Origin: a virus
Lineage: Duplodnaviria; Caudoviricetes
Reading direction: 5' to 3' (one strand)
IMG/VR virus record: IMGVR_UViG_3300028800_000096
Location: 907-64,906 of that record
Length of the DNA stretch: 64,000 nt
Under the pieces are notes generated by a model. The model saw only the letters and a program-made list of their open reading frames with translations, was not told where the DNA came from and made no database searches. Numbering within the stretch: the first letter of the stretch is position 1; every line of letters starts with the position of its first letter. This document shows positions 2,399 to 43,788 of this stretch, piece by piece. The position numbers and the translations under genes were made by a program.

Positions 2399-3109
2399 AT
2401 GATCGGTAACTTCATTGGAGCACCGATTGGTGGTGTTGTCGTTCGGGAAGACAATTCTCTCGTTGTTATCCCGGCAAATGTCGCGATCTCCGGTCAGTCC
2501 GTGGCGCTCGTGGCAGACCGTAGGATGGCGGTTTCTGCTGCGGACGTTACAATTGGAGCGCAAAGCGCTGATCTCGCTCTCGACCGTCGCATAACGATCA
2601 ATGCGGCTGATGTGGAGATCGCCGGACAAAGCTTAGTCCTTCGCGCAACCCGCTATCTCTACGTTTCAGCCAGCAACGTTGCGATTGCAGGTGTTTCCGT
2701 TACGCTGAACCTTAATAGAATGCTGCATGCGCTTGTTGCAGGCATTTCTGTTGCGGGTCAGACTGTCTTTCTCAGAGCCCAACGCGCGGCACTGACCGTT
2801 CTGCCAGCCAATGTGGCGATCTCTGGCTATGCCATCCGGATCGCCCGGACGTATGCCATTCTGGTCGAACGTGCGAGCGTTCTGATCCATGGCATGACGG
2901 TCCGGTTGCTCCGGACGCGGGTTCTGAGCCCGGTCGATGCACCGCCTTCTGCAACGTTAGTTCCGATCTCGTCTCCAGATTCGGCGACCTTGATTGATCT
3001 CACTCAACCGGCAAGCGCAGTCCTTATAGATCTTGCAGCGGCTTCGAACGCAACCCTGATACCTGTCGATGCCCCCACATCTGTCACGCTTTTTGAAGAT
3101 GCGGCCTGA
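2399..3109 (+). CDS. Hypothetical virion protein with beta-strand repeats
   Basis: Repeated A(N/D)VxI(A/S)GQSV units; located in the structural operon. Confidence 0.6.
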   Translation: MIGNFIGAPIGGVVVREDNSLVVIPANVAISGQSVALVADRRMAVSAADVTIGAQSADLALDRRITINAADVEIAGQSLVLRATRYLYVSASNVAIAGVSVTLNLNRMLHALVAGISVAGQTVFLRAQRAALTVLPANVAISGYAIRIARTYAILVERASVLIHGMTVRLLRTRVLSPVDAPPSATLVPISSPDSATLIDLTQPASAVLIDLAAASNATLIPVDAPTSVTLFEDAA

Positions 3110-3129
3110 CACAACAAGGTTTTGAATTC

Positions 3130-3810
3130 ATGGCAACCAGCGGCAGCACTGATTTCTCGATCAACGCCCGCCAGCTTATCCAGTACGCTCTGGAGAAGAT
3201 CAACATCGTCGCCGAAGGCCAGTCGATGAGCGATACGGCGGCGGAAAAAGGACGCATCGAACTCAACCTTCTCCTGCATTCCTGGCAGAAACACCCGGCA
3301 CTCTGGCGGACGAGCGAAGGTTACGTTGGCCTCATTGCGAATACACCCGCGATCGCACTGACGCCACGACCCTATCGCGTTCTCGATTGCCGCTTTCGTC
3401 AAACAACCGGCATCGATATTCCAATGGTCGAATTGACCAAGCAGGAATACATGGACCTGCCCAACAAGACGACGACCGGCATTCCAACGCAATGGTATTT
3501 CGAGCCGCAGAGGGACAGCAGCAACCTTTATGCCTGGCCGGTTCTTTCCTCAGTCACGACGGAAACGGTCCGCGTTACCTATCAGAGGCGATTTGAAGAC
3601 ATCGACGATCTTGCCAATGACATCGACATCACGCAGGAGCACCTCGATACGGTGCGAATGAATTTGGCGGCGCGATTGGCCGATAGCTATGGCCGGGCCG
3701 GCCCCCACATCGACCGCATTATCCAACGCTCTGAATCGTTGCGCGAGGAAATGGAGGACTGCGACCGCCCGGAAACTCTGAGGTTTGTCCCGGAGACACG
3801 GTATGGGTGA
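3130..3810 (+). CDS. Head-tail adaptor (P22 gp4-like)
   Basis: MATSGSTDFS..LIQYALEKI start, LYAWP motif, NLAARLA; directly upstream of the gp10-like gene. Confidence 0.75.
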   Translation: MATSGSTDFSINARQLIQYALEKINIVAEGQSMSDTAAEKGRIELNLLLHSWQKHPALWRTSEGYVGLIANTPAIALTPRPYRVLDCRFRQTTGIDIPMVELTKQEYMDLPNKTTTGIPTQWYFEPQRDSSNLYAWPVLSSVTTETVRVTYQRRFEDIDDLANDIDITQEHLDTVRMNLAARLADSYGRAGPHIDRIIQRSESLREEMEDCDRPETLRFVPETRYG

Positions 3811-5230
3811 GTCTCTGACGCTCGATTTCGGGCTCGGCTCCGAGCCTGGACGTTATGGCCAGGATACAGGTCCGAGGCACTGGAACGCCATCGTCGAAGC
3901 CAAGCAGAAGGGCAAGGTTCCGGCTCCGATCTATGTCGAAGACGGTTTCACTGTATTCTCGCCGGGACGAACGTTCGCCGCCAATCGAGGCATGGTCGTT
4001 CTCGACGATACGACGATGTACGCCCTGCTAGGGACGGTCTTCACGAAGATTGGAGCCGATGGTCAACGCACGGGTGTTGGTAATATCGCAGGCACCGCAC
4101 GCGCCATCATGGCGCGCAATGAAGCGTCCACGGTTCAAATCGCCATCGTCATCGATGGAAACAAGTTCATTTGCTCCAATGACACGGTTACGACGTTGAG
4201 CGATGCCGATCTGCCGGCGGCAAATTCGTGCACGTTTCTCAACCGCAAGATTATTTTCGGAATTGATGACGGACGCTTTTTCTGGTCGGCTGTCGACGAT
4301 TCCACAAGCATCTCGGCGCTCGATTTTGCCGAAGCCGAAGGCAATCCGGATGGGGGTGTCCGGGTCATAGCGCATCTGCAGGAACTCTGGATTTTCGGAA
4401 CCGAGAGTATCGAAGTCTGGTACGATAATGGCGATGGGTTCACCCGCCGGACCGGCGTCGTCATCCCAAAAGGATGCCTCGGAAAACATAAACATACCAT
4501 TGCCGAACTTGATAAGGATCTGTTCTGGGTCGGAAACGATAACGTCGTCTATGCGGCGGCGGGCTATGGATTCGAACGCATCTCGACCGATTACCTCGAA
4601 GAACTAATCCGACTAACGCAGGACAAGTCGACGCTCGTCGCCACGGCCTATTTCAAGAACGGGACGGGGTTTTATGTCCTGAGTTCAGACGAGTGGTCCT
4701 GGGCCTTCAACCGGACGCTTAGTCAGTCGTCGGGACAGGCGTGCTGGTCGGAGAGATTTTCCAAGGGCGGAACGCGCTGGAAGGGGAACGGCGCGGTTAA
4801 CTTCGCCAACCGGGTCATCATCGGATCGAAAGACGACGACGCTCTGTATCAGATGAGCCAGGCGGCCTTTACCGAAGCGGGAGAGGAAATCATCTGGCGA
4901 GTTCGCTGCGCACCGATGCATGCGTTCCCAAATCAGATTTGCGTCGACCGTCTGCATCTCGATCTCTTTACCGGCTTTGGACTTAACTCCACGGATGAGA
5001 AAAAATCCGATCCGAGAATTGGCCTCCGATGGTCCGACGACGGGGGAAGGACATGGAGCAACCAGTTGTTCCGGTCACTCGGCAAGATCGGGAAGGGTAT
5101 GACGCGGGTGACGTTCGACGCCCTGGGCTTGACGGGTGTTTCGGGAAGGATTTGGGAGCTGGAAAGCTCAAGCCCAACGGTTAGGGGGTTGATGCAGGCC
5201 AAGATCGAAGGCGATCTAAACTCAACATGA
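3803..5230 (+). CDS. Packaged DNA stabilisation/tail nozzle protein (P22 gp10-like)
   Basis: FAEAEGNPD, ELWIFGTESIEVWY and LRWSDDGGRTWSN motifs typical of the gp10 family. Confidence 0.88.
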   Translation: MGESLTLDFGLGSEPGRYGQDTGPRHWNAIVEAKQKGKVPAPIYVEDGFTVFSPGRTFAANRGMVVLDDTTMYALLGTVFTKIGADGQRTGVGNIAGTARAIMARNEASTVQIAIVIDGNKFICSNDTVTTLSDADLPAANSCTFLNRKIIFGIDDGRFFWSAVDDSTSISALDFAEAEGNPDGGVRVIAHLQELWIFGTESIEVWYDNGDGFTRRTGVVIPKGCLGKHKHTIAELDKDLFWVGNDNVVYAAAGYGFERISTDYLEELIRLTQDKSTLVATAYFKNGTGFYVLSSDEWSWAFNRTLSQSSGQACWSERFSKGGTRWKGNGAVNFANRVIIGSKDDDALYQMSQAAFTEAGEEIIWRVRCAPMHAFPNQICVDRLHLDLFTGFGLNSTDEKKSDPRIGLRWSDDGGRTWSNQLFRSLGKIGKGMTRVTFDALGLTGVSGRIWELESSSPTVRGLMQAKIEGDLNST

Positions 5231-38693: not shown

Positions 38694-38897
38694 TCAGTCC
38701 GCTGTCGAGATAGAGCGGGTTGATTTCCGGCTCTCGGTGTAAATCGCGTAACCCAGTTTCCACTCGTCCATCGCGACCGGGTTCATCGGCTGCTTCGTCA
38801 TCGCTGCGAAGTATCCAGCCTCGACGACTTGCTGCAGCCAGGTCGGCATCTCGCTCAAGTTCGGCCATGATCCGCTGTCCATCTTCGTCACGCTCAC
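38694..38897 (-). CDS. First small gene of the PL operon, hypothetical
   Basis: 67-aa ORF just after the PL leader. Confidence 0.4.
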   Translation of the reverse strand: MSVTKMDSGSWPNLSEMPTWLQQVVEAGYFAAMTKQPMNPVAMDEWKLGYAIYTESRKSTRSISTAD

Positions 38898-38905
38898 ACG
38901 GGGTT

Positions 38906-38999
38906 AAAAAAGGGAGCCGGAACTGACGGGTGCTGATCTAGAGGGTGTCAGTCCCGGCTCAACCGTTGGAGCCGCAGACGGGATGTCTCTGGCTCCAAC
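38906..38999 (-). promoter_or_regulatory. PL leader: two tandem hairpins followed by a U-tract
   Basis: Stems 38965-38973/38991-38999 and 38914-38927/38947-38960, followed on the minus strand by CCTTTTTT. Confidence 0.65.
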
Positions 39000-39052
39000 C
39001 CCGCTGCGAACAAGAACGGCTAGGGAGGGTGTCGTTCGCTTCGGTGATTTGG

Positions 39053-39096
39053 AAGGTACAAAATGTACCCATCACCGTCAAGTACAAAATGTACCC
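39053..39096 (-). promoter_or_regulatory. PL promoter with two operators
   Basis: Minus strand TTGACG-17-TACCTT; palindromes (G/A)GTAC-AAAAT-GTACC at 39055-39069 and 39081-39095. Confidence 0.8.
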
Positions 39097-39766: not shown

Positions 39767-40126
39767 ATGAATTGGCTGAATATCAGCCGGTCTCGGGCGC
39801 TAGTCCAGATGCTGGCGTGGACTTTTGTTGCCATAACGGGCTCTCATTCCGCTTTGGCTAAATGCAACCTATCCAAGATTATTGGATACACCGTTGTTGC
39901 TGAAAAAATAGTGTCGGGCTTCGTTCAAGGTGGGACAATAAAGGACGGGTTCGAGGGATGCGATTTTGATCGAACCATCATTTTTAGCGACAATACAGGC
40001 GTAAGGTGTGCAGGTTATTCATATACTTACGCCTTTTCTCCAACGGCTTACATCTTCGTCAACAAACTGGGCTCGGCGAAGATGTGCATCGACGACGAGA
40101 TGTATGAAATCGAATTACTGCATTGA
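39767..40126 (+). CDS. Secreted hypothetical protein
   Basis: Signal-like N-terminus; FEGCDFDR..C..YSYTYA..MCIDDE. Confidence 0.6.
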   Translation: MNWLNISRSRALVQMLAWTFVAITGSHSALAKCNLSKIIGYTVVAEKIVSGFVQGGTIKDGFEGCDFDRTIIFSDNTGVRCAGYSYTYAFSPTAYIFVNKLGSAKMCIDDEMYEIELLH

Positions 40127-40175
40127 TTTTTGGGGAGGCGTCGCACAGAACGGATTGAGCGGCGCCAGCGATCGT

Positions 40176-40955
40176 CTATCGGCGGTAGCTGATGTGCTGG
40201 ATCATACAGCCTATTACTCGCCCAGGGTTGGTCTTCGGGTTCACGGACTCCGTCCTGTAGCTGCCGTTTAAAGGCTTCAGAATGAAGTTCTTTTCAGGGT
40301 CCAGACGACTATCCGACTCCTGCCATTTCCTAAAGATTGCAGTGTCCTCAGACTTCACCTGAGCGCAAACGAAATCCCCTGGTTTTGGCCGCACATCTGG
40401 GTCGATCAGAACATCATCCCCTGGCAAGAAACGCCTCTCCTCATATGGAAAGCTCGGGACCATGCTGTCGTCTTCGATAGGCATGAGAAAGGAGTTCGGT
40501 CCGATCTCATGACCCGGTTTCGACGCCACGGGCTGAAGTCTATTTTCTTTTTTTGCCTGCTCTTTCACCGTCTCGAACGCTGATGGTATCATGACAGCCT
40601 CTCTGGCAGTCAGTCGCGGCAGCATTAATAATCTCGGGCGTGCTGCTGTATGTTGCGGCCGACTTCCCCACTCTGGTTCCTCATCGCCCAAGAACAGCCA
40701 GTCGAAAGAGCCCTCTGGAGATTCAAAAACTCCGAGCGCCAACCTGGCTTCGTCGGCAGGTATCTCTCGCGTGCCTTTTTCGTAGGCTCTGTAGGAATCC
40801 ACCCCCCGCTGGAATCCCGCAGATCTCAACGCTTCGAACGCCAAATCGGTATTATTAAATTTGGCCTTCCTGAGCTGAAAAAGGCGCGCACCTATTTTTT
40901 TCCTGCGCTCCGAATTCTTCTTGGTTCGCTCAACAACCAGCTTCTTGGTTGTCAT
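40176..40955 (-). CDS. cI: CI-like repressor (HTH + S24 peptidase)
   Basis: YRAYEKGTREI HTH; DDSMVP..GD.VLIDPD..PGDFV..FRK..LKPLN..Y autocleavage domain. Confidence 0.9.
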   Translation of the reverse strand: MTTKKLVVERTKKNSERRKKIGARLFQLRKAKFNNTDLAFEALRSAGFQRGVDSYRAYEKGTREIPADEARLALGVFESPEGSFDWLFLGDEEPEWGSRPQHTAARPRLLMLPRLTAREAVMIPSAFETVKEQAKKENRLQPVASKPGHEIGPNSFLMPIEDDSMVPSFPYEERRFLPGDDVLIDPDVRPKPGDFVCAQVKSEDTAIFRKWQESDSRLDPEKNFILKPLNGSYRTESVNPKTNPGRVIGCMIQHISYRR

Positions 40956-40974
40956 TTCTAACGCACCTCTCTAA

Positions 40975-41020
40975 GGTACGATACGTGCCCCTTGACAGCA
41001 ATGGGTACTTTTTGTACCTT
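40975..41020 (+). promoter_or_regulatory. PR promoter with operators
   Basis: TTGACA(40992)-17-TACCTT(41015); operators GGTAC-GATAC-GTGCC (40975) and GGTAC-TTTTT-GTACC (41004). Confidence 0.8.
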
Positions 41021-41027
41021 TAGTAAC

Positions 41028-41276
41028 ATGTTCGAGACCCACCGACAGATCATAATGGCTTGGCCGCATCTCTCAGACTTCGCTGGCGACATCGGAGTCT
41101 CGGAGAATACTGCCAAAGGTATGCGACAAAGAAATTCAATCCCAGCTGACTATTGGCCTAACGTTGTGAAGGGTGCGCGAAAAAGAAAAATAGAAGGTGT
41201 TTCAACGGATTTGCTCGCCGCATTGAGAAACGCAGCGAGGATGCAGCGAAGGGTACAATCCGTACACGCGGCGTAA
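41028..41276 (+). CDS. cro: Cro-like HTH repressor
   Basis: Divergent from cI; FAGDIGVS..AKGMRQRNSIPADYW pattern of alphaproteobacterial phage Cro proteins. Confidence 0.8.
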   Translation: MFETHRQIIMAWPHLSDFAGDIGVSENTAKGMRQRNSIPADYWPNVVKGARKRKIEGVSTDLLAALRNAARMQRRVQSVHAA

Positions 41277-41340
41277 CAAAACACTCTGTGACGTTTTTGT
41301 AAACGGGGTTTTCCTGAGTTCCAGTTTCCTTGCGTAACGA

Positions 41341-41880
41341 GCCCACTTCGCTGGGCGGCTACAGAGGGTTGTCAGGTCATGTCTCCAACACCTGATGTCA
41401 CTCGCGATCCAGTGTAGCCGCCTTGGGAATTGAGTTTCGTAGCAGGTGCCGTACTCATCACCGGCCCGGGTTCGGAAGGGGTCGGAACAGGCCTGATGCT
41501 TCTCGGGGGAGAAGTTAAAGCGGTGGCGCTGCGCAGATCCTCGACGGTCTGTATTGGAATGCCGCTAATCAGGCTCAAAACTTCCGGCGTTGAAGTTGTG
41601 TACACGCGTCTAAGCGTTGTCACCACAGAAGGGGTTCGGACCTCACCGAACCAACCCGGGATTAGTCGTTACCTCTGCGGACCGACGCGGAGTGACGGTC
41701 TGAACGGGAAGCAAGGTGAGATTCGGGAAGCCGATCGCTGAGCCGGTTAAAGCCTCCGGGCGCCGCTGCGATCTTGATGGGGGAATTGATCACCTCCTGC
41801 TCCGGGCCCCTTCTGTTGTGCCAGCGTCAAGCTGCAACCGGGCCGCTTTTGTCAGCGTGCGGCCGAAATTTCGCACGCGA
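41341..41880 (+). ncRNA. Candidate large structured RNA (~540 nt)
   Basis: Many nested local and long-range stems (see findings); no convincing ORF. Confidence 0.55.
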
Positions 41881-41892
41881 AGCAAAAGACAA

Positions 41893-42432
41893 ATGGCAAA
41901 CCAATTTACGGGACGACACGGCTGGACCGATGAGCGGATAGCGCTTTTGAAGCAGCTCGTCCGCGAGGGATATTCCGGAGGCTTGATCGCCGCGAGGATG
42001 GGCGTCACCCGAAGTTCCGTGATCGGAAAAGTCGTGCGTCTCGGAATGCAGCTCGGCAACACCCGCAATTCTCAGCGGAACCTAGACCAGCATTTAAGGC
42101 TCAAGGCCAACTACACAAGACGAAAAAAGGCCGGTGACCGGCTTCGCCCGCCGCCTCCAAAGGTCAGGTTCACGGTCGAACCGCTGCCCGTTCAGAATAT
42201 CGAGGACGTGGCGCGGAAATCTCTGCTCGATTTAAACCTCAATGATTGCCGTTATCCAGTTGGAGACCCCAAAACTCCGGGATTTGGTTTCTGCGCCTTA
42301 GAGCGCGTTCCGGGCTCCGCCTACTGCCATGCGCACAAAGAGCGGTGCTCCGGTGGTCTACCTCCAAAAACCCGTCAGAAGCCAGTTCTGGCCCGTGAAA
42401 CAGCCCCCGTGAAGGAGACGGCCGATGCTTGA
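41893..42432 (+). CDS. gcrA: GcrA-family cell-cycle regulator homologue
   Basis: WTDERIALLK.L..G.S..IA..MGVTRSSVIGKV.RLG and LLDL..CRYPVGDP..FC..YC.AH. Confidence 0.92.
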   Translation: MANQFTGRHGWTDERIALLKQLVREGYSGGLIAARMGVTRSSVIGKVVRLGMQLGNTRNSQRNLDQHLRLKANYTRRKKAGDRLRPPPPKVRFTVEPLPVQNIEDVARKSLLDLNLNDCRYPVGDPKTPGFGFCALERVPGSAYCHAHKERCSGGLPPKTRQKPVLARETAPVKETADA

Positions 42433-42967
42433 TGGCTCCTACCTCCTTTCAACGGCGATGTCATTTGTAGGGTATTCGCCCAATACCGGATTTGTGCGGA
42501 CCGATCCGCCGCCACTCCAATTCGATCTGGCATTAATCCCAGACGTTCCTGTCGGTCGTCCGACAACGACGGTATCCCCACGGCCGGAACTGGGATTAAT
42601 GCCAGTCAATGCGTCATTGAAATCCAATAAGAAAACGCGAACTGGCAGCAATCCGGAACAGAAACGAGCCGAAAAAACGGCTGCTGGTATTAATGCCATT
42701 CGGTTCTTTATTTCCGATTGGCTGGATGCGGCCGGCGAAACCATCACGCGTCTTGATGAGCTTTTGTCCGCCTACAACGATCTGCGTTCGAGGCATCCGG
42801 AACTACCGGAGTGTTCGAAGATCAAGTTCAGCAAATTGCTCGCCGCAGCCGGTTGCCGGCGCATGACGGAGTCCCTCCCGAGAGACGGCAAGGACGAGCG
42901 CGGCAGGCGCTTTGTCGTCTTTGAAATGCGGGCACCGCGCAAATCTTCACATCGGAGGGCGGCATGA
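42425..42967 (+). CDS. Hypothetical protein (winged-helix-like C-terminus)
   Basis: 180-aa coupled ORF. Confidence 0.5.
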   Translation: MLDGSYLLSTAMSFVGYSPNTGFVRTDPPPLQFDLALIPDVPVGRPTTTVSPRPELGLMPVNASLKSNKKTRTGSNPEQKRAEKTAAGINAIRFFISDWLDAAGETITRLDELLSAYNDLRSRHPELPECSKIKFSKLLAAAGCRRMTESLPRDGKDERGRRFVVFEMRAPRKSSHRRAA

Positions 42968-43231
42968 CTCCCCGATCTCCCCGATCTCACACCTTTTGGA
43001 TGCTCTGGTTCGCGTTCTTAGCGCTCGGAAACGCCTATTACGACACGCCGCTGATCGCGTGTTTGATGATCGTTTTATCGACCTATTCGATGTTTCAGGT
43101 TTGGGCCGATCTTCGCAGGAGGGCAGCGCAATGACCCTCTACTTCATCTACCCCGCCCTGGTCTTCTGCGGCTTGGCTCTTGCCTGGTCGATGTACGAGC
43201 TTGCGAAATTCATGGTCAGGAGCAAGCGCAA

Positions 43232-43426
43232 ATGACCCTCATCACGAAGGCTGTTTCACGGTTTGAATGCAGGGATTTTCAGCGAATTCAGGCTGAGGCT
43301 CGGGCTCAGATCGCGCTCCATCATTTTTATGGTTTCACGGGCGGGAAGACTACAATGGAACGTCTTTGCGAGGGTCTTGAACGCCGCAAACTCATCGTCA
43401 GGAGGCAATATGGACGCCCTTCCTGA
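43232..43426 (+). CDS. Small hypothetical protein
   Basis: ATGA-coupled ORF. Confidence 0.4.
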   Translation: MTLITKAVSRFECRDFQRIQAEARAQIALHHFYGFTGGKTTMERLCEGLERRKLIVRRQYGRPS

Positions 43427-43788
43427 TGCCATTGAGCGCGCCAGCCGCAGGGCTCTGGCACACCGTGCCTATTTCTTTTTCGGTTCGGGCTGGAACAGCT
43501 TCGAAATCGCTCGTGTACTTCACGTTTGCGAAGATTTTGCCGTGGATCTCATCCACGAGGGCCGCAAGCAGGCGCGTGAACCGGAGGACTAAAAGCAGGA
43601 AAGCCCCCAAGCCTGCCAGGGCTCAGAGGCTTTCGAATTTGTTGCTCGAAGACTGCCAGGTCAAGAGCGTTGTGATGAAGGACCTTGCCACGGTCGATCG
43701 ATAGAAAGTTCGTAACGATGCTTCTACACGAAATGGCATCCCGGCGCAATGGCCGCCACTGGATAACCTGTGGATTGTGGAGGTGCAA

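Follow-up and report, generated by a model that had tools for sequence, protein, structure and literature searches.

A predicted structured RNA between a cro-like gene and gcrA in the early region of a temperate phage

To our knowledge, very few RNA elements that control the early operons of temperate phages are known (nut sites, put and a few small RNAs), and nearly all of them are enterobacterial. Further points of reference are the ROOL and GOLLD RNAs, which are associated with prophages and tRNA genes, and DicF, a short base-pairing small RNA (sRNA) that is processed from an operon transcript. Here we analyse the gap of 617 nucleotides (nt) between a cro-like gene and a phage gcrA gene (41277-41892, + strand) in a 64,000-nt stretch of a virus record of the Caudoviricetes (IMG/VR IMGVR_UViG_3300028800_000096, positions 907 to 64,906), referred to below as the window. 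The record measures 64.9 kb and is complete by the completeness estimate of its source collection. The gap very probably holds real, selected RNA structure. That it is an undescribed structured RNA of the + strand acting as a cis leader of the delayed-early genes is a combined reading that we find nearly as easy to accept as to doubt.

The closest described systems differ in size and setting. The put RNAs of the lambdoid phage HK022 (putL and putR) are antitermination RNAs that work in cis and need no protein; with them, RNA polymerase reads past terminators by way of its beta' zinc-binding domain. The putR site of phage HK022 is placed ~270 nt downstream of the start of the rightward early promoter PR, and put RNA is described as ~70 nt long with two stem-loops, present in two copies, one after the leftward promoter PL and one after PR (PMC9378689). 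The conAn2 regions of conjugation operons, one half of the bipartite conAn antitermination system, are described as 260-600 bp of poorly conserved sequence acting in cis; they need ConAn1, encoded just upstream, for long-range action, and a 16-bp GC-rich stretch and the stem-loop SL1 are given as key (PMC8191782). ROOL and GOLLD are portrayed as large, elaborately folded RNAs of unknown function (PMC5737381; bioRxiv 10.1101/2024.12.08.627333), and DicF as an sRNA in the dicBF operon of the Qin prophage of Escherichia coli, beside a cell-division gene (bioRxiv 10.1101/2023.04.14.536235).

The predicted four-way junction core

Two relatives of the gap were recovered, L002 among viral contigs and L146 among metagenome contigs. 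Shared by all three sequences is a core of ~215 nt (41614-41827, + strand), in which a closing helix, P1, is predicted to surround a four-way junction with arms P2, P3 and P4. P1 joins 41614-41640 to 41801-41827 by 26 pairs. The branched arm P2 (41642-41720) consists of the helices 41642-41647/41715-41720, 41655-41658/41705-41708 and 41662-41679/41686-41703 and is capped by an invariant GACCGA loop. P3 (41733-41754 with 41759-41773) has a UAAA internal loop and a UNCG-type terminal loop (UCCG or UUCG), and P4 (41777-41798) is a hairpin with an invariant GGGGG/CCUCC stem and a variable 9-nt loop that is different in all three sequences, a further variant of it occurring in contigs of other runs. 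Pairwise identity over the whole core is 78.5-84.3%. Along 41719-41778, a near-invariant stretch made up of the junction AGAUUCGGGAAGCC and arm P3, all three sequences agree at 56 of 60 positions.

The consensus structure of the three sequences (RNAalifold) contains 76 pairs, and each sequence folded alone gives the same structure at minimum energy; in a model-guided alignment, 96.5% of cells are paired. Compensatory changes were found at 10 of the 76 pairs, compared with 0-3 when the partners were slid by 1-3 columns and with no instance of ten or more in 500 shuffles, controls that are generous because the consensus was derived from the same three sequences. All ten lie in P1 and P2, seven of them in P2. 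The stems of P3 and P4 are invariant, so that their support comes from energy and not from covariation.

An earlier note on this DNA, made from the letters of the window, had listed stems throughout the gap, each of which is present where it was placed. Its long-range stem CACCACAGAAGGGG (41621)/CCCCTTCTGTTGTG (41807) is supported by the comparison and proves longer than had been drawn, with 26 pairs. Two of its shorter stems in this part give way to other pairings: GGTTCGG, proposed to pair with CCGAACC, instead prolongs P1, with CCTCAC pairing with GGTGAG (two compensatory pairs), and CTCTGCG/CGCGGAG, together with a longer helix, takes the place of GACCG/CGGTC.

Folding energies were compared with those of dinucleotide shuffles (20, 100 or 200 by stretch) and expressed as z-scores. 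On the + strand the whole gap folds at -265.3 kcal/mol (z -4.32, equalled by 0 of 20 shuffles), and on the - strand its z-score is -1.19 (3 of 20). The core stretch 41612-41836 gave z -4.57 on the + strand (0 of 200) and z -0.36 on the - strand (67 of 200), and the homologous gaps of L146 and L002 gave z -4.97 (0 of 100) and z -6.72 (0 of 20). The signal comes mostly from 41612-41836 and the first hairpin of the gap, H1. These values, together with the compensatory changes, bear out in the main the earlier description of the gap as heavily base-paired. They also speak to the suggestion that the gap is a non-functional recombination scar or G+C-rich spacer, folded by chance and conserved through the closeness of the relatives. 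Such a spacer would suit a very rare family of only three related sequences at 78-84% identity and a middle part at chance stability; against it, no shuffle reaches the observed energy for gap or core, whichever of the three sequences is folded, substitutions cluster in compensatory pairs, and a 60-nt stretch stays nearly invariant amid ~20% divergence. We give this explanation very little credence.

Between 8 and 10 of the 76 core pairs are G-U pairs, which would be mismatches on the other strand, and the covariance model R1 of the core scores 244-255 bits on the + strand versus 33-38 bits on the - strand. Since both favour the + strand, the RNA is assigned to it, and on these models the gap is a structured RNA encoded on the same strand as cro and gcrA. 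The same evidence weighs on the proposal that the gap acts as DNA (a binding-site array, operator or origin) or as a ColE1-type pre-primer RNA origin. Genes for a DnaD-like protein, a DnaB-like helicase and a primase lie downstream of gcrA, the invariant 60 nt might just as well be DNA to which a protein binds, and RNA-based origins are described for some prophages (PMC7157519). However, the compensatory changes keep pairing and, with the G-U pairs and the strand-specific stability, indicate RNA rather than duplex DNA; no iteron-type repeats were seen, matches of the 41277-41892 sequence elsewhere in the window do not exceed 13 nt (blastn-short; the best other R1 match has E 4.7), and the phage has its own initiator-type protein. 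A DNA element or origin is thus very unlikely.

The coding potential of the gap was assessed next to its structure. Open reading frames (ORFs) of 84-103 amino acids (aa) exist in it, by a program-made list, and the earlier note had named two, 41430-41741 (+) and 41372-41626 (-), while calling the gap non-coding; neither is conserved. The + ORF meets a stop in L002 and a frame change in L146, and its search against 5.8 billion proteins returned a single match, 100% identical over 81 aa, which is probably the window's own product. The - ORF was judged unconserved by frame comparison only. A frame extending gcrA upstream had no match among the same proteins, and no gap ORF belongs to a Pfam or PHROG family. 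There is a 1-nt indel inside the conserved part of the gap, the invariance of 41719-41778 includes third codon positions, and similar peptide fragments appear whichever of the six frames is read, as they should between DNAs of 80% identity.

What most resembles a coding signal is a - frame ending at 41662, which has the same stop and the peptide KIAAAPGGFNRLSDRLPES in all three sequences. The peptide lies on a nucleotide-invariant stretch and so carries no protein-level signal; the peptides flanking it differ radically (SRSDRH, SVQVHH and FRSDFH), and no start codon is common to the three. That the gap encodes one or more small proteins, in either named ORF or in this - frame, is therefore scarcely credible. 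The earlier note had given a conserved frame, a lack of covariation and poor folding as grounds for abandoning an RNA, and the checks went against all of them: neither named ORF is conserved, covariation is present and the fold is better than that of shuffles.

No described RNA family accounts for the gap, as the note had supposed. A cmscan search with Rfam 15 (E <= 10) of 40000-43500 of the window and of three homologous gaps found no family at the gathering threshold, and the matches in the core and middle part were chance-level ones to eukaryotic snoRNA, miRNA and lncRNA families at 12-18 bits. The best match anywhere was to SorX, an alphaproteobacterial sRNA, in the tail of L002 (21.8 bits against a gathering threshold of 46.6, E 0.0085); a sucA match on the - strand across the gcrA start was set aside (24.3 bits, gathering threshold 40). 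ARAGORN found no tRNA or tmRNA gene in the whole window. An RNA between cro and gcrA was not found described among the matches listed in a limited search of open-access texts, and the RNA is apparently undescribed.

The P4 loop and 3' arm (41786-41797) read GAUCACCUCCU, which we take to match the 3' end (anti-Shine-Dalgarno) of 16S rRNA; because only ACCUCCU is kept in L002 and L146, paired with GGGGG, the likeness is probably a coincidence. A small ORF behind the Shine-Dalgarno-like GGGGGA of P4 was dropped, there being no conserved start codon, and so was a tRNA-like T-arm in GGGGUUCGGACC, which is not kept in L002 or L146 and for which ARAGORN was negative. Past the core, the tail of L002 (1931-1996 of that contig) has a U-rich run and a terminator-like GGGGC-UUCG-GCCCC hairpin. 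The middle part (41512-41519) and arm P3 (41745-41752) each contain one copy of the 8-nt word GUUAAAGC, in both cases at an internal loop beside a helix.

Flanking modules, relatives and rarity

Upstream of the core lies H1 (41341-41435, + strand), a long irregular hairpin of ~95 nt that is predicted to form a single branched structure (z -3.25, 2 of 200 shuffles) within a conserved block beginning at 41318. It is kept in L002, where the 10-bp stem GGCGGCTACA (41354)/TGTAGCCGCC (41413) of the earlier note has one G-C to A-U swap. The TCAGGT/ACCTGA pairing that this stem encloses is present in the window and has no comparative support, the apical part of H1 being unalignable with L002. In L146 an unrelated hairpin of similar size (z -3.02) takes the place of H1.

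Between H1 and the core, a mid module of several hairpins (41424-41611, + strand) is common to the window and L146 only; model R2 matches these two and neither L002 nor a further gcrA locus, L168. The consensus of the two sequences has 55 pairs, all kept in both, of which five are compensatory, compared with none in six slid controls and with an equally high count in 12 of 500 shuffles. Two of the five lie in the outer helix and the others in CGGAAG/CTTCCG, CTTCTC/GAGAAG and GCGGT/GCCGC, the first two of these being stems that the earlier note had drawn. Its GCCTGAT/ATCAGGC and GCAGATC/GGTCTGT retain pairing through one-sided changes. Its outermost helix fared less well: CGGCCCGG (41462)/CCGGGCCG (41838), said to close a domain of ~385 nt, is part of the minimum-energy fold of the window, whereas it is absent from the consensus of window and L146, and four of its eight pairs survive in L146 in an alignment read by eye. 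By these models the individual hairpins of the mid module are likely and its overall architecture is uncertain.

A last hairpin, H2 (41846-41888, + strand; CUUUUGU..GCGUGCG / CGCACGC..GCAAAAG), ends 4 nt before the gcrA AUG. It is predicted in the window and in L146 with one compensatory pair, so that the GCGTGCG/CGCACGC stem of the earlier note is kept there; alone in the window it is not significant (z -0.62). A related GCGUGC hairpin stands at the same place, just before gcrA, in L002 and L168.

The relatives share different parts of the gap with the window. In L002, repressor and cro are those of the window, and 41318-41440 (H1) and 41616-41830 are shared, the ~200 nt between them being unalignable and unmatched by R2. 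Between 41426 and the gcrA start, L146 and the window are ~80% identical; the cro of L146 has no alignable similarity to that of the window, and its repressor has in common only the S24 domain, at 29% identity. Because L002 and L146 share different parts with the window, the modules have different partners, and by comparison of the three loci the gap appears to be a mosaic in which H1 accompanies cro, the core accompanies gcrA and the mid module may be present or absent. In all three carriers, including L146 with its unlike cro and repressor, gcrA directly follows the core. The single ~540-nt RNA of the earlier note is accordingly replaced by modules with separate evolutionary partners; the predicted RNA is smaller and more modular than that note drew, and no new mechanism is shown.

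The family is rare as judged from sequence searches, with three known carriers. Searches of the gap by blastn against 50,697 phage and 72,556 plasmid records gave no match. L002 was reached through its cro-like protein (80% identity); the GcrA protein as query in viral contigs gave nine stretches and no relative. Exact core words in viral contigs were found in six stretches for an 18-mer, four for a 16-mer and 45 for a GC-rich 16-mer, with one true case each, L002, which was also the sole true one among 14 stretches holding a degenerate 17-mer; R1 found nothing in the 13 new stretches from that search. In the genomes of 185,579 species (one each), a 19-mer gave six stretches, none true, with local matches of 19-36 nt, and in metagenome contigs an 18-mer gave 105 stretches, one of them true, L146. 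There was no blastn match among the 401 genomes searched, a sample of the class of one alphaproteobacterial metagenome-assembled genome, and translated frames against the 5.8 billion proteins gave no new family member.

Among the 22 public runs listed there was no RNA run with the stretch, and the four examined were of DNA contigs only. In such contigs, further, partly different copies occur as fragments in rhizosphere metagenomes and in isolates of two organisms. One isolate run contains several versions of parts of 41000-42100 at differing depths, with assemblies that break inside the gap; its gcrA part has a much higher summed depth, as expected if a host gcrA or several related prophages are present.

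The immunity region and a possible role in the early transcript

The surroundings at 40-42 kb have, judging from their genes and sites, the layout of a lambdoid immunity region, and the earlier note's likening of the gap to the position of cII in lambdoid phages is fair. A cI-like repressor gene (40176-40955, - strand; Pfam Peptidase_S24, E 3.8e-06; PHROG 4, transcriptional repressor, E 3.1e-15) adjoins the cro-like gene (41028-41276, + strand), whose product matched no Pfam or PHROG family. Between them lies the predicted PR/OR region (40975-41020, + strand), with operator-like GGTAC-N5-GTACC sites at 40975 and 41004 and putative PR hexamers, chosen by eye (-35 TTGACA, 40992-40997; -10 TACCTT, 41015-41020). 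A consensus promoter scan did not recover these hexamers, nor did it report any + strand promoter-like site in 40800-42100. The operator pattern has six matches in the window against 0.40 expected, with sites on both flanks of the repressor gene, and a one-mismatch site lies within the 3' end of cro (41252-41266). The cro-like ATG (41028) is just 7 nt past the predicted -10, and the cro mRNA may be leaderless. Directly past the cro stop, a small hairpin followed by UUUU (41283-41312) could be a weak terminator; it is limited to the window, because in L002 the cro frame continues through the equivalent stretch.

On the other side, the PL region (38904-39095, - strand) mirrors PR, with two GGTAC-N5-GTACC operators, a -35 TTGACG (39081-39076) and a -10 TACCTT (39058-39053). 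In its leader a strong terminator-like hairpin (38960-38914) precedes a run of six U (38911-38906), both shortly ahead of the first leftward ORF (ATG at 38868), and because of this hairpin and U run early leftward transcription may need antitermination. RecT-like and nuclease genes lie to the left of the immunity region.

The gcrA gene (41893-42432, + strand; Pfam GcrA, E 1.1e-27) suggests an alphaproteobacterial host. GcrA is a sigma-70 cofactor in Caulobacter. The window's GcrA is 62% identical to that of L002 and 69% to that of L146, and no gcrA product in a phage collection exceeds 33% identity to it (19 records, 18 from Caulobacter phages); gcrA genes are described in phiCbK-like Caulobacter phages (PMC9437464). 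The gap of L168, whose gcrA is 56% identical, is 430 nt long, non-homologous and without core or mid module by R1 and R2, and it too folds better than shuffles (z -3.06). Directly after gcrA in this locus (2570-4235), an ORF at 3510-4235 has a DPPY motif, seen by eye. This motif is usual in CcrM-type N6-adenine methyltransferases. The idea that phage gcrA loci in general have a long structured gap was dropped, the ORF count being uninformative. GcrA/CcrM sites were likewise dropped as a feature of the gap, which holds a single GANTC against 1.7 per kb over the window.

A role of the RNA in cis as a leader is the mechanism that we favour over the others considered, though taken by itself it is a tentative proposal that we hold slightly less likely than not. 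Under this proposal the whole gap would be made as part of the early rightward transcript from PR, a reading favoured because the RNA is on the same strand and has no promoter of its own; a separate promoter at the start of the homology between window and L146 was dropped after neither eye nor scan found an acceptable -10. The compact fold would keep 600 untranslated nt from serving as a Rho entry site, the long duplexes H1 and P1 may be pause or RNase III-type processing sites, the invariant arm may bind a factor, either RNA polymerase or a protein, and H2 would hold the ribosome-binding region of gcrA. Together, these elements would set the amount of transcription and translation reaching gcrA. 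Precedents for action in cis at this kind of place are putR and conAn2.

The same observations may be read as a stable non-coding RNA acting in trans, consisting of the core with or without the mid module, cut from the PR transcript (for instance at P1) or ended by a downstream hairpin, and serving as a protein scaffold or decoy, perhaps with phage GcrA, or as a large RNA of the ROOL/GOLLD kind. We consider this doubtful, though nearly as likely as the cis leader. Its size and complexity (a four-way junction, a 26-pair helix and 56 of 60 positions invariant) exceed those of known cis antitermination RNAs, put being described as ~70 nt (PMC9378689); a terminator-like hairpin and U-rich run come after the core in L002, in a tail weakly like SorX; the modules are exchanged independently, as a separate gene would be; and DicF provides the precedent of a prophage sRNA in an operon with a cell-division gene (bioRxiv 10.1101/2023.04.14.536235). 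Yet no promoter of its own was seen by consensus scan, the window has no canonical terminator after the core, and in three of three carriers the core is never found away from gcrA.

Several points weigh against the cis leader and its structural basis. A trans-acting RNA would be no worse an explanation of the size and of the invariant arm, and the linkage to gcrA would fit a co-inherited trans-acting RNA equally. The consensus scan found no terminator-like site in the window's gap and downstream ones occur at chance (28 versus 23 +/- 4.5), so antitermination, which the earlier note had offered as one possibility, has no evident target, and neither R1 nor blastn-short found a second copy near PL in the window, the PL leader carrying other hairpins than the core. 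Looked at as a riboswitch, the RNA has a conserved junction and variable 3' flanks (a terminator-like hairpin in L002, other hairpins in the window and L146); however, P1 with its 26 pairs appears in every predicted fold, no competing pairing was found, and on these predictions P1 is probably too stable for riboswitch-type switching. Genes for gcrA occur without the core in L168 and 24 other phage loci, among which R1 gave no match below E 0.04, so the core is not a general requirement of gcrA expression. The mid part alone (41424-41611) folds at chance (z +0.12, 107 of 200 shuffles equal), and a second consensus run over a longer stretch gave partly different pairs there, so that two folds are proposed. 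Only three sequences are known, and the consensus and its controls were built from them; the claim is still fragile.

Should the RNA be functional, it would be a compact object for studying how alphaproteobacterial temperate phages time a hijacked cell-cycle regulator, and it would extend the few known families of large structured phage RNAs by one. Beyond this, it is improbable, though worth stating, that the core founds a new class of large phage regulatory RNA without a dedicated protein. It might then travel with RNA polymerase, as put does, but on the basis of a four-way junction or, alternatively, be an excised stable RNA cooperating with phage GcrA; the two would, if this is true, redirect host transcription or the cell cycle when alphaproteobacterial phages choose between lysis and lysogeny.

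Comparison with known systems

The likenesses to described RNAs are each partial. DicF resembles the present case as an RNA in an immunity-proximal operon beside a gene acting on host division or the cell cycle, and it differs in being a short base-pairing sRNA, whereas a multi-helix junction is predicted here. With ROOL and GOLLD the present RNA shares a large, elaborate fold carried by a phage. Unlike them, it has no Rfam match, no tRNA genes in its window and a fixed place between cro and gcrA, and it is smaller, with a conserved part of ~215 nt, or up to ~400 nt with the mid module.

The conAn2 regions are comparable in being long stretches between genes of a mobile element's main early operon. 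Their architecture is different, and so is their setting: conAn belongs to Gram-positive conjugative plasmids, and the gap to a temperate phage with an alphaproteobacterial-type gcrA and, upstream, a cro-like gene of no recognised family. As with put of HK022, the phage is temperate and has a cI/cro switch, and a structured RNA would be made as part of its early transcript. The constant part of the present RNA is a single predicted four-way junction of ~215 nt, which the description of put sets apart from it, and the host is alphaproteobacterial as judged by gcrA, whereas that of put is enterobacterial. In position, the two are alike: counted from the PR start, here a predicted one, the conserved H1 block, which follows cro, begins after ~290 nt, and putR of HK022 lies at ~270 nt.

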